A stretch of 64,000 bases of DNA from a virus. Its lineage: Duplodnaviria > Caudoviricetes. The stretch covers positions 24,931-88,930 of the IMG/VR virus record IMGVR_UViG_3300011116_001123; one strand, 5' to 3'. The notes below the pieces were generated by a model that saw nothing but the letters and a program-made list of their open reading frames with translations, did no database searches and was not told the DNA's origin. Position 1 is the stretch's first letter. Every line of letters begins with the position of its first letter. Positions 12,952 to 15,297 of the stretch are shown one piece after another. Both the position numbers and the translations under genes were made by a program.

Positions 12952-13049
12952 ATTAATAAATACCCAAAAAGGGTCATTTTTTCCCCAAAAATTTTTTTGC
13001 GTAATATAGGGGATTATCCCCCCTAAACTGACATTCTGACACCCCGTAA

Positions 13050-13087
13050 GGGGGGATACGGGGGAGGGGGGTCCCCATATGGGGGGG
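13050..13087 (+). other. G-quadruplex-capable tract
   Basis: G6-ATAC-G5-A-G6-N9-G7 in an AT-rich genome. Confidence 0.6.
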
Positions 13088-13147
13088 TAGACCCCATGCC
13101 AGAGGGGAGGTCTTAGATATATTTATTTATCCCCCGCCCCCTGTGAC

Positions 13148-13210
13148 TTATCCACAAGTTATTAATGTGGATAACTTGTGGACATAAACAGAATAATATA
13201 TTGTGGATAA
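13148..13210. promoter_or_regulatory. DnaA-box cluster 1
   Basis: TTATCCACA 13148-13156; TGTGGATAA 13166-13174 and 13202-13210; 12-bp inverted repeat 13151-13182. Confidence 0.8.
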
Positions 13211-13272
13211 GTGGTATGACAGATAGTCAATAATAAAAAGTACGTAGGGGTAACCGAAGAATGTTCTGTATA

Positions 13273-13575
13273 TTACTTAAGAAATATAATTAACCGAGAG
13301 GGGTTAAGACCATAGTATGTATATAACCATTCTCTAACTACCTTCTTGATTTCTTTCTCTGACAAGTCAAACATGTCTCTCAATCTCGAGGACACATCTC
13401 CGTAGAACACAACAGAGTCATCCCCTTCATCATACTCAAACACATGTGTATTGTTGATTGGATTAATATACAATACTGAGTTGTCTAATGGTTCCTCAAT
13501 AAGGTCGGGGAACTTATCGTTAACAAACTTAACTGCCAGATCCATTAACCGTGATTCTCTGATGATTACTTTCAT
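13273..13575 (-). CDS. Family-A small protein
   Basis: MKVIIRESRL; LRDMFDL..EWL..Y; TATTTAT 13580-13586. Confidence 0.75.
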   Translation of the reverse strand: MKVIIRESRLMDLAVKFVNDKFPDLIEEPLDNSVLYINPINNTHVFEYDEGDDSVVFYGDVSSRLRDMFDLSEKEIKKVVREWLYTYYGLNPSRLIIFLK

Positions 13576-13613
13576 AATAATAAATACAATTACTTCTTGG
13601 TTTTGTACGCGCT

Positions 13614-13641
13614 ACTTAACATAATCCAGATTATATAACAT
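13614..13641 (-). other. dif-like XerC/XerD recombination site
   Basis: ATGTTATATAA-TCTGGA-TTATGTTAAGT (11-6-11); right arm matches E. coli XerD arm TTATGTTAAAT at 10/11. Confidence 0.7.
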
Positions 13642-13727
13642 GGTTCTATAACTCCCCCAACCTTTTATTGTATTATATGGGGAAAGTTTAGATGGCCCTA
13701 AAAAGTGGTACCATGGTGATAACCATG

Positions 13728-14162
13728 TTAGATTTGCATATAAGGTTGTTCCCCTGGCTTACGATTGATGTGCCATGTCCCCAATTCAATATTACGATTA
13801 CGGAACTTGAACTCATCAGGAAGGGCGGGGTTCTCAGCCACATCTTGGATTGTTCTCCTTATCTCATTACGAACTGTCTTGTATTCATCAAACTCCATAT
13901 CGTTTATAAGGTTGGGGTACGAATAGTCAATGTACTTCCCCGCATCAATCAACTCCTGAATCCATTCCTTTGTCTCATGACCATAAGCCTTAGAAAATTC
14001 ATTGGGGTCGAACTCAAAGTTCAAAAAAATTGTTGTATAGAGATCCAAGTCCTCCTGTCTGACAAACACATCCTTAATCCATGGGAATCTCTTTTTTAAT
14101 GCTCTCTTAATCAACTTGAAAGCATAAACATCATATATATCTTCAGGTGTAGTCTTCCCCAT
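13728..14162 (-). CDS. Hypothetical protein
   Basis: 144-aa ORF. Confidence 0.7.
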   Translation of the reverse strand: MGKTTPEDIYDVYAFKLIKRALKKRFPWIKDVFVRQEDLDLYTTIFLNFEFDPNEFSKAYGHETKEWIQELIDAGKYIDYSYPNLINDMEFDEYKTVRNEIRRTIQDVAENPALPDEFKFRNRNIELGTWHINRKPGEQPYMQI

Positions 14163-14175
14163 GGTTTACTGTTTA

Positions 14176-14433
14176 TTATAAATACTCAGCCTTAATCATC
14201 TTTTGACATACCTCCACAATTTCCTTGGGGAATATCTCATAATCAGACACTTCGTATAACTTCTCAATCTTGGCATCAACACATACCCAAGCATCCATGC
14301 CAATAGGTTTCCTGTTAAACCCAATCTTTGCTCTCTCAAAATACAGAGAACCAACCTCTTCATCATTGAAGGAGATAATAAACCTAATTCTCCCCTCCTC
14401 CATTTTGTCCATCGTGTAAATAAAATCTGTCAT
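14176..14433 (-). CDS. Hypothetical protein (start moved to MTDFIY)
   Basis: TACTTAT variant of the late motif just upstream; the longer start overlaps a DnaA box. Confidence 0.6.
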   Translation of the reverse strand: MTDFIYTMDKMEEGRIRFIISFNDEEVGSLYFERAKIGFNRKPIGMDAWVCVDAKIEKLYEVSDYEIFPKEIVEVCQKMIKAEYL

Positions 14434-14466
14434 GTTGATAAGTATACGTTCGGAACATATAAAAAT

Positions 14467-14540
14467 AAAGTTATCCACATACTGACATTATGTCTGGCGG
14501 GGTCGTCATGTGGAAAACTTTTTCCATTGTGGATAACTTT
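14467..14540. promoter_or_regulatory. DnaA-box cluster 2
   Basis: TTATCCACA 14471-14479; TGTGGAAAA 14509-14517; TGTGGATAA 14528-14536; outer boxes form a 13-bp inverted repeat. Confidence 0.8.
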
Positions 14541-14620
14541 TATGACCAAAAAACTTGATTTTGTCAAAATGTCAGGGGAGCGTTACATGGGGGATAATCC
14601 CTTTGGGGGGTTTTGGTTCC

Positions 14621-14645
14621 CCCACACTCTACCACTTTCCCCCAC
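14621..14645 (-). promoter_or_regulatory. MraZ-operator-like phased repeats
   Basis: GTGGG-N5-GTGGT-N5-GTGGG; a second GTGGG-N5-GTGGG pair at 14883-14897 (+). Confidence 0.5.
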
Positions 14646-15297
14646 CATTAGTACTGAATTTATGGCTGGTTATAGTGTAATGACCACTTTTTTCCCCCTG
14701 ACGATAGTGAGAAGACCATTTTTTTACTATATATAAATCCTAGCAAAAAAAGGATTACTAAGTGAGACCCCGCGTGAGTGAACGTAGTGAACCTTTAACC
14801 CCCCTTCAACGAACCAATAGGGTATCTTAGATGACCCCTCGTATGGACAATTATAGTCCCCTTCAACGACATATCGTAGATGGTGGGAGATTGTGGGAGT
14901 TATACCTGATGGGGTGTAATTATTTACCGAAGGTATTGTTTTGTACCCCATAGGGTATAGGACTGTAATGTGAAATAATATATGTTAATTCGGATCCCCA
15001 CCGAATAGGTATGTCTTTATTAACATCTCACCTTCACACAATATCACCATGTCATTCGAAGTCCTCTCATTTGGCGGGGGACACTCTATTAGGAGGGGAC
15101 AGTTTGTCCCCATGTATAACTCTCCAAATGTGTGTTAAAAAATGAGATTTGGAAGATTATACAACAAGAGAGAGAATGAGGGACAATCCACGGAACGGTA
15201 GTGTAGTGGATAATGTCTGTCCCGAGATGAACGAACTTGGTGGATAATCATCACAATTATTTAATATGGTGTGAGTTTCTTTATTCTATTTATTGGT

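Follow-up and report, generated by a model that had tools for sequence, protein, structure and literature searches.

A single-copy, mostly non-coding putative control locus with clustered DnaA boxes in a family of freshwater jumbo phages

We analysed a 64-kb stretch of phage DNA (the window; bases 24931–88930 of one 88,930-base virus record) and report here on an island at positions 12952–15270 of that window, which an original prediction had described as a non-coding mimic of several host cell-cycle sites. We found that the island is a single-copy, putative control locus, mostly non-coding, in a family of ~320-kb freshwater jumbo phages. It combines two arrays of boxes for the bacterial initiator DnaA, which are clustered, conserved and confined to this one place in the genome, with an inverted pair of modules, two conserved core genes and an RNA of conserved structure. 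We tentatively favour the reading that the island docks host DnaA and serves as a phage origin of replication or early control region; DnaA binding, promoter activity and a role in replication are what we infer from the DNA. Any explanation has to account for two new features, the structured RNA and the module pair. Hardly anything is known of where jumbo phages start replication or of their early control regions, and members of this family have not been cultured; the locus provides a precise, conserved, single-copy candidate with testable parts.

The window comes from a freshwater jumbo phage of ~320 kb, to judge from the sizes of its relatives, two of them complete, and from the samples in which the island is found. 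The 88.9-kb record has a completeness of 29% (CheckV). Relatives traced through the GT2 glycosyltransferase gene immediately right of the island lie on contigs of 163–326 kb, and two of these, G003 (326 kb, with ends that overlap by 130 nt) and G004 (317 kb), are rated complete. Viral, aquatic or freshwater metagenomes make up the sequencing runs in which at least half of the words sampled from the island occur. The locus occurs once in the complete 326-kb G003. An assembly chimera with host DNA, a concern raised in the original prediction, was rejected because the same locus recurs in the same phage context in many independent contigs.

DnaA boxes clustered at one conserved locus

The window contains five perfect TTATCCACA boxes, all within 1.39 kb and in two clusters, arrays A and B (Table 1), exactly where the original prediction had placed them; no other perfect box occurs in the window. 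Shuffled sequences gave an expectation of 1.18 perfect boxes per window, and none of 100 shuffles reached five. Together with two one-mismatch boxes, the five perfect boxes lie inside 1.4 kb, separated across both arrays by spacers of 9, 27, 29, 29 and 10 bp. Counting boxes with at most one mismatch, 9 of the window's 46 fall in 13148–15247, and the island holds five of the six perfect boxes in the whole 88.9-kb record. A longer word sets these boxes apart: the 11-mer A[GC]TTATCCACA is present in all island boxes (5/5 in the window's record and 6/6 in G003) and in none of the perfect boxes outside the island (one in the window's record and five in G003).

Box sites are kept in relatives, a point on which the original prediction had staked itself. 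The island accounts for 6 of 8 perfect boxes in G001, 5 of 7 in G002, 6 of 11 in the complete G003 and 4 of 8 in the complete G004; G005 has no clustered perfect boxes. No other 1.5 kb of G003 is as rich in boxes with at most one mismatch as the island (7 versus 5 at the next-best loci, with 155 in the genome). Spacing within arrays A and B is identical in three related loci (L002, L003 and L004), and the box at 14433(−), which has one mismatch in the window, is perfect in L002 and L004. Two boxes are retained in each array of L006, which has a GT2 protein of only 62% identity. At positions homologous to the island boxes, distant lineages read TTATCAACA or TTATTAACA; the boxes drift by lineage from CC to CA or TA at positions 5–6. 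Among the eight islands with both borders resolved, four have five or six perfect boxes, one has a single perfect box and three have none.

The box words recur in phage T5. In T5 record AY587007 the boxes read AAGTTATCCACA, GACTTATCCACA and GACTTATCAACA, the same extended word as in the island, and T5 first-step-transfer repeat units carry AAGTTATCCACA and GACTTATC(C/A)ACA. That unrelated phages infecting different hosts have this word in common implicates DnaA, a protein conserved among bacteria. Because the boxes are clustered and conserved and have their extended word in common with T5, we consider it highly probable that they are true DnaA sites and not a coincidence. We detected no phage-encoded DnaA: Bac_DnaA (PF00308) had no match in the window's record or in G001–G005, and Bac_DnaA_C (PF08299) had none in G001–G005, the set covered by that search. 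A DnaB-type helicase and a family-B polymerase are encoded elsewhere in the complete relatives. The + / − / − three-box arrangement with similar spacing was found in 68 DNA stretches from diverse bacteria (one genome per species, 185,579 species), none of them related to the island. A literature search returned no paper joining DnaA boxes with jumbo phages, nor one joining DnaA boxes in phage genomes with titration.

Inverted modules, a structured RNA and two enclosed genes

An outward-facing pair of modules flanks the two box arrays and a two-gene operon, and beyond the rightward module ~500 nt of non-coding DNA are conserved and end in the RNA. The original prediction had treated the whole island as non-coding. 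Three open reading frames (ORFs) are in fact present on its minus strand (13273–13575, 13728–14162 and 14176–14433), two of which (P0001 and P0004) were found in the related lineages examined. The non-coding parts are 12952–13272, 13576–13727 and 14434–15270, and the last of these is the window's longest non-coding stretch if an unconserved mechanical ORF (14727–14951) is disregarded. We rejected a coding role for that ORF, since the homologous place in L004 lacks any minus-strand ORF of 60 aa or more, the alignment indels are not multiples of three and the stems covary. In the distant loci L005–L007, nearly all sequence of 11000–15270 that blastn detects is island non-coding DNA, which is still detectable while the identity of core gene 1 is down to 25–31%, a sign of strong constraint on the non-coding sequence.

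Each module consists of TGTCA-N3-TGTCA followed by GGGGGATAATCCCC, and the two modules form an inverted pair bracketing the boxes and both genes. The CTGACATTNTG repeats listed in the original prediction were confirmed: the only two copies of TGTCA-N3-TGTCA in the 88.9-kb record lie in the island, in inverted orientation. The 326-kb G003 likewise has two copies of each module word and no more, inverted to each other on either side of the boxes. There are two module types, with one copy of each, distinguished by an inner gap of 5–6 nt or 14 nt; in both, TGTCA lies 17–18 nt before GATAAT, a −35/−10-like spacing (GTGTCA-18-GATAAT in module A and ATGTCA-18-GATAAT in module B). Module A is conserved in 7/7 aligned sequences, and the TGTCA words and GGGGATAATCCC of module B are invariant in 18/18 aligned lineages. 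In G010 (282 kb) the modules are 3.7 kb apart (147518–151219), compared with 1.2–1.6 kb elsewhere. We also rejected an invertible segment between the modules: the orientation of core gene and modules is constant in 8/8 resolved islands, no strand-changing joint was seen in read contigs and the modules differ in inner gap. The read contigs came from four runs, all of them from RNA-type libraries, and mostly represent relatives (85–95% alike). In the RNA-type run X18, summed depth was 191 over 12976–13069 and 129 over 14668–14761 versus 3–4 over the gene at 12600–12881, although depths of different relatives are not comparable, DNA can be present in such a library and gaps in cover carry no weight, so that we read no expression signal from these depths. 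A relative's contig from an RNA library also spans 13015–13107, a weak observation.

Between module A and the first boxes lies a block of G-runs and C-runs, from which a G-quadruplex or hairpins could form. G/C runs are more frequent in the island than in its surroundings, as originally described: the island has four of the record's eight runs of at least six G, and its GC content is 0.39 versus about 0.33.

From module B to about 14856, mean column identity in the 18-lineage alignment is 73%. Most of the 18 lineages keep the CCCAC/ACCAC words of this region, with T-tracts ~10 nt apart, which may be an iteron-like array. The minus-strand GTGG repeats at 14621–14645, previously read as MraZ-like, belong to these conserved blocks upstream of the RNA. 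We found no consensus structure for the blocks and ruled out an RNA structure in 14562–14800, for which RNAalifold gave only −7.6 kcal/mol.

The structured RNA occupies the next ~225 nt. Of the 56 pairs that RNAalifold predicted from six close sequences, 15 show compensatory changes. Pairing in the three closing helices reaches 91.3% across 14 lineages, versus 46–64% with the partners slid; 7/16 pairs change on both sides and 0/500 shuffles reach the observed score, in a test biased in favour of the structure by its derivation from the same sequences. Folded singly, 14/14 sequences keep the closing stem and two long arms, the arm sequences being unrelated, and the window's copy has a z value of −2.34 versus shuffles. 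G–U pairs favour the plus strand. The RNA profile matches 24 of 104 loci and is single copy in G003 and in the window's record. A search of Rfam gave no match near the gathering score (best E 3.5–7.6, unrelated families), and we regard the RNA as a candidate for a new, previously undescribed family of phage non-coding RNA. Two further elements of the original prediction turned out to be parts of this structure. The CsoR-like palindrome TACCC-N4-GGGTA, which is perfect once (14944) and has other self-complementary sequences in its place in relatives, is part of a covarying RNA arm; the MraZ-like plus-strand GTGGG pair (14883–14897) lies inside the RNA, with the first GTGGG overlapping helix P3. 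At 15066–15101, the 3′ strand of the closing helix (GGCGGGGGAC) recurs 18 nt downstream (GGAGGGGAC), and this repeat could pair with the same 5′ strand to give an alternative RNA structure. The RNA is not simply a leader of the GT2 gene, because relatives carry large insertions between the two and the junction tolerates them; these include a 480-aa ORF without a Pfam match (L002 8474–9916, minus strand) and several hundred nucleotides in L003 (about 2640–3430).

For core gene 1 (P0001), tblastn found 16 distinct homologues in related loci, one of them a fragment, and 15 sequences were aligned. The AF2 models of the P0001 and P0004 proteins have pLDDT values of 90.6 and 79, respectively. Neither protein has a Foldseek PDB match at E ≤ 0.001 or a Pfam or PHROG match, and both are acidic as judged by residue count. 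The Protein Atlas returned only phage hypotheticals for P0001, plus one weak LPD29 lead at 0.89. The assignment of the P0004 start to the internal ATG at 14433 is supported by the distant homologues, which align only from residues 14–30. Boxes of array B lie around this start (14433–14441 and 14471–14479), so that the array brackets the start codon together with a conserved promoter-like stretch, CTTTATTTTTATATGTTCC.

Table 1 Features of the island, in window coordinates
Feature	Position	Strand	Description
TATTTAT motif	12956–12962	−	A few bases before the ATG of gene 12613–12951; kept in 7/7 aligned sequences
Module A	13009–13041	−	Palindrome GGGGATTATCCCCCC and TGACATTCTGACA; minus strand reads TGTCA-N3-TGTCA-N6-GGGGGGATAATCCCC; points left
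G-run/C-run block	13044–13110	+	GGGGGG, GGGGG, GGGGGG, GGGGGGG, GGGG; between module A and boxes; conserved
DnaA-box array A	13146–13212	both	Perfect boxes 13148(+), 13166(−), 13202(−), each A[GC]TTATCCACA
Inserted cassette	13273–13584	−	312 nt; 100-aa ORF 13273–13575 with its own TATTTAT; outside the core locus
Core gene 1 (P0001)	13728–14162	−	144 aa, acidic; no family or fold match
Core gene 2 (P0004, internal ATG)	14176–14433	−	85 aa, acidic; no family or fold match
DnaA-box array B	14433–14540	both	14433(−, one mismatch), 14471(+, perfect), 14509(−, one mismatch), 14528(−, perfect)
Module B	14562–14601	+	TGTCAAAATGTCA-N14-GGGGGATAATCCC; inverted partner of module A; points right
Conserved blocks	14602–14856	+	CCCAC/ACCAC words with T-tracts ~10 nt apart (14619–14646); GACCA and T-run at 14684–14695 and 14713–14725; AT-rich 14716–14751
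Structured RNA	14857–15081	+	~225 nt, Y-shaped; closing helices P1, P2 and P3, then two long variable hairpin arms
P1	14857–14862 with 15076–15081	+	Closing helix
P2	about 14868–14870 with 15061–15063	+	Closing helix
P3	14880–14886 with 15044–15050	+	Closing helix
Tail before GT2 glycosyltransferase gene	15082–15270	+	Repeated GG(C/A)GGGGAC word; one-mismatch boxes at 15205 and 15239

Origin, control region or another role

The locus allows several readings of its function, which we rank from an origin or early control region through a transcriptional switch, a T5-like entry site or the iterons of a phage protein, and a DnaA sink to a multi-site decoy. In the first, our tentative preference, host DnaA would oligomerise on arrays A and B, gate the internal operon promoter that array B boxes bracket, and mark and distort this single place in the genome. 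The phage replisome (DnaB-type helicase and family-B polymerase) would be loaded first at the DnaA-marked locus, helped by outward transcription from the two modules. The locus would then be a bipartite origin or early control region, assisted by both DnaA and transcription. If DnaA binds, the phage, although equipped with a helicase and a polymerase, would still rely on the host initiator or respond to it. The original prediction had offered as one option a replicon module using host DnaA for initiation and host XerCD for dimer resolution. Its DnaA half is plausible, as the boxes are conserved, clustered and at one locus per genome, with no phage DnaA. The XerCD half is not supported: a dif site is 28 bp long (11-6-11) with conserved XerC and XerD arms, whereas the dif-like site at 13614–13641 on the minus strand matches the XerD arm at 10/11 positions and the XerC arm of E. 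coli dif at 4/11; XerD-arm matches with at most one mismatch are at chance level (5 in the window versus 7.6 expected); and close relatives can be aligned over this stretch but the distant loci L005–L007 cannot.

Several observations weigh against the origin or early control reading. No run of DnaA-trios lies beside any box, taking as a run at least three of five phased TA[AG] trios (3′-GAT-5′ repeats); the five island matches are at 13569–13575 and 14373–14376, a density of 2.1 per kb versus 1.5 per kb in the window. There is no outstanding AT-rich unwinding element, the best 30-nt windows being 83–87% AT in a genome of 66% AT; the conserved AT-rich 14716–14751 (83% AT) is 180 nt from the nearest box, and the island as a whole is richer in GC than its surroundings. 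Cumulative GC skew, proposed as a check in the original prediction, follows the coding strand without a turn at the island in the 88.9-kb record or the complete G003, which is a weak test for a phage. Given the lack of DnaA-trios by the boxes, of a marked AT-rich element and of a skew turn, we conclude that the locus is not a copy of the bacterial unwinding module. Replisome genes are about 150–190 kb from the island in the complete relatives, and no DNA-binding fold was seen in the two acidic core proteins (AF2 models searched with Foldseek against the PDB, E ≤ 0.001). The promoter-like reading of the modules depends on a consensus scan that was not above chance overall (13 found versus 14.1 expected). 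The host may be of a Bacteroidota type that does not use −35/−10 promoters, to judge from the scarce Shine–Dalgarno sites (before 5/87 ORFs, background 6.5%); such a host may also fit TATTTAT, the phage's recurrent promoter-like word, found at most 22 nt upstream of 21/87 ORFs. Finally, three islands (L104, L005 and L007) have no perfect box and carry one to three one-mismatch boxes and TTATYAACA variants, so that either the weaker sites are bound by DnaA or the core function is independent of it.

Comparison with known origins is similarly mixed. Bipartite chromosomal origins (oriC) flank dnaA in B. subtilis and H. pylori. The island resembles bacterial oriC in its clusters of perfect boxes, in the placement of two clusters 1–1.5 kb apart around one or more genes and in the + / − / − arrangement, but differs from it in having no DnaA-trios, clear unwinding element, nearby dnaA or dnaN, or skew switch. 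With plasmid and prophage-plasmid origins (P1 oriR, RK2 oriV, F and pSC101) it has in common consensus DnaA boxes on a mobile replicon without a dnaA gene. Arrays of DnaA boxes in plasmid origins have been reviewed, and for the P1 plasmid origin that review describes two arrays, with the helicase first placed at the boxes (PMC4980987). DnaA-box origins in phages have been predicted with Ori-Finder-type tools, according to two reports (PMC12484599, PMC11512268). However, the plasmid origins have a Rep gene with winged-helix domains, of which Pfam/PHROG searches and Foldseek of the two enclosed proteins gave no sign here; no clear counterpart of their iterons or of their AT-rich unwinding element was seen, and the phage brings its own helicase and polymerase.

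A possible, though less likely, role is that of a transcriptional switch read by DnaA without any part in replication. The boxes would be operators for the internal operon and the two outward units, and would make early expression dependent on the host's growth state. At dnaA, nrdAB and mioC, DnaA is well established as a regulator of transcription. In favour of a switch, array B brackets the start codon of core gene 2 together with the promoter-like stretch, the modules are −35/−10-like with a constant 18-nt spacer in both types despite inner gaps of 6 versus 14 nt, and neither a clear unwinding element nor DnaA-trios were found. Yet a plain operator leaves unexplained the uniqueness of the locus in 326 kb, the ~500 nt of conserved non-coding DNA and the separation of the two arrays by 1–1.5 kb. 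The switch and origin readings are not mutually exclusive.

The closest known analogue of the island is the untranslated injection-stop region of T5. As described in a preprint, this region is better conserved than neighbouring genes in T5-like phages and contains two mutually inverted units with eight DnaA boxes, most often TTATCCACA, with TTATCAACA and TTATTAACA as the most frequent variants; the units are set apart by a coding stretch whose length varies, and many repeats and palindromes come after them (10.1101/866236). By the preprint's account the T5 boxes had been unexplained since 1987, and it proposes that membrane-bound DnaA holds the DNA and stops injection, a proposal that its author gives without a test (10.1101/866236). 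The island matches this layout in its untranslated region, which has changed less than the genes around it, its two inverted units with DnaA boxes and its enclosed coding DNA of variable length. The box words AAGTTATCCACA and GACTTATCCACA and the variants TTATCAACA and TTATTAACA are common to both, neither has a phage-encoded DnaA and in each a long run of repeats or palindromes lies beside one unit.

By analogy, the island might be a DNA-entry checkpoint or anchor, at which the arrays would hold the incoming genome to membrane-bound DnaA until early proteins release it, or at which the genome would be tethered. The likenesses listed above favour this, as does a window neighbourhood of small genes of uncharacterised function, but on balance we think it quite unlikely. 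T5 boxes are paired 3 bp apart in 131-bp units with a 52-bp spacer, whereas the island has arrays of three and four boxes with 9–29-bp spacers and different palindromes. In T5 the region is part of the terminal repeat, at 7.9% of the genome, whereas the island is internal in contigs, at 219 kb of 321 kb (about 0.68) in two contigs classed with direct terminal repeats. The island also encloses two conserved genes and adjoins a structured RNA, and blastn found no sequence similarity between it and any of 50,697 phage records; there is no sequence homology to T5, where box function is unproven and the mechanism itself only a proposal. If DnaA does bind the island, a common explanation for the like layout of island and T5 is worth seeking. 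One such explanation, in our view unlikely, is that T5-like enterobacterial phages and the freshwater jumbo family converged: inverted box arrays would hold the incoming genome at membrane-associated DnaA and so stage entry or seed the first replication complex, coupled in the jumbo phages to a ~225-nt RNA from the adjacent module that would act as primer or regulator.

We give the same low probability as for the T5-like entry site to the boxes being iterons of a phage-encoded DNA-binding protein, with that protein running an origin or operator and the likeness to DnaA sites being coincidental. The lineage-wise drift at homologous box positions would suit co-evolving pairs of protein and site, and the sites flank two conserved genes, as in rep–iteron replicons. 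However, a chance match of seven to nine fixed positions to the DnaA consensus is very improbable, the same extended word and variants occur in the unrelated T5-like phages, and the two acidic proteins encoded between the arrays gave no fold match to a winged helix or a helix-turn-helix.

Titration of DnaA, to which the original prediction's second option reduces once its other sites are removed, is less probable still. Five to seven strong boxes per copy would sequester DnaA and block initiation at the host origin. E. coli datA and DnaA-box clusters of B. subtilis are titration sites, chromosomal regulators of the cell's own initiation. The island is like them in having about five strong boxes in about 1 kb and no clear unwinding element beside them, but nothing in them matches its modules, enclosed operon or RNA. 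A sink needs boxes alone, not fixed spacing, inverted modules, a unique operon-flanking placement or an adjacent RNA; three of the eight resolved islands have no perfect boxes yet keep the rest of the locus; and the effect would come late in infection.

The second option in its full form, a multi-protein decoy mimicking dif/XerCD, KOPS/FtsK, MraZ, CsoR and Fur sites, is very improbable, since it has in its favour only the literal presence of words, all of which except the DnaA boxes are at chance level (the dif arm; KOPS-type GGGNAGGG, 2 in the window versus 2.8 expected; the 14/19 Fur-box match, 16 versus about 10 in 20 shuffles), belong to the covarying RNA (the unconserved TACCC palindrome and the plus-strand GTGGG pair) or are part of the CCCAC/T-tract blocks (the minus-strand GTGG repeats). 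A single KOPS word is not known to have a function. The case also shows that what looks like 'host-site mimicry' in short words of AT-rich phage DNA is mostly chance.

Neighbouring features

The cassette between array A and core gene 1 is absent from L001–L004, where 13272 joins 13585, and a relative's contig skips 13271–13585. Its ORF has no Pfam or PHROG match. The 18 nt upstream of this ORF match those of gene 12613–12951 at 17/18 positions (repeat D10). The arrangement looks like cassette-wise gain of small genes. ORFs inserted in relatives gave Pfam matches in 0/6 cases.

Small genes of uncharacterised function make up the window's neighbourhood. When the three island ORFs and neighbouring genes were scanned against Pfam and PHROG, only the GT2 and metallophosphoesterase genes at the right had matches, and a tRNA scan found no genes. 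Farther along, the 400-aa ORF at 24453–25655 (−), labelled 'DNA polymerase' in PHROGs, is a UmuC-like Y-family translesion polymerase by tblastn (34–37% identity to annotated phage records), and carries no taxonomic information. Among the relatives, the island lies at a near-identical coordinate (215–219 kb) in four separately assembled contigs of ~317–321 kb (G004, G006, G007 and G008), two of which are classed with direct terminal repeats and two of which (G006 and G008) may be near-identical. These coordinates may reflect fixed physical genome ends.

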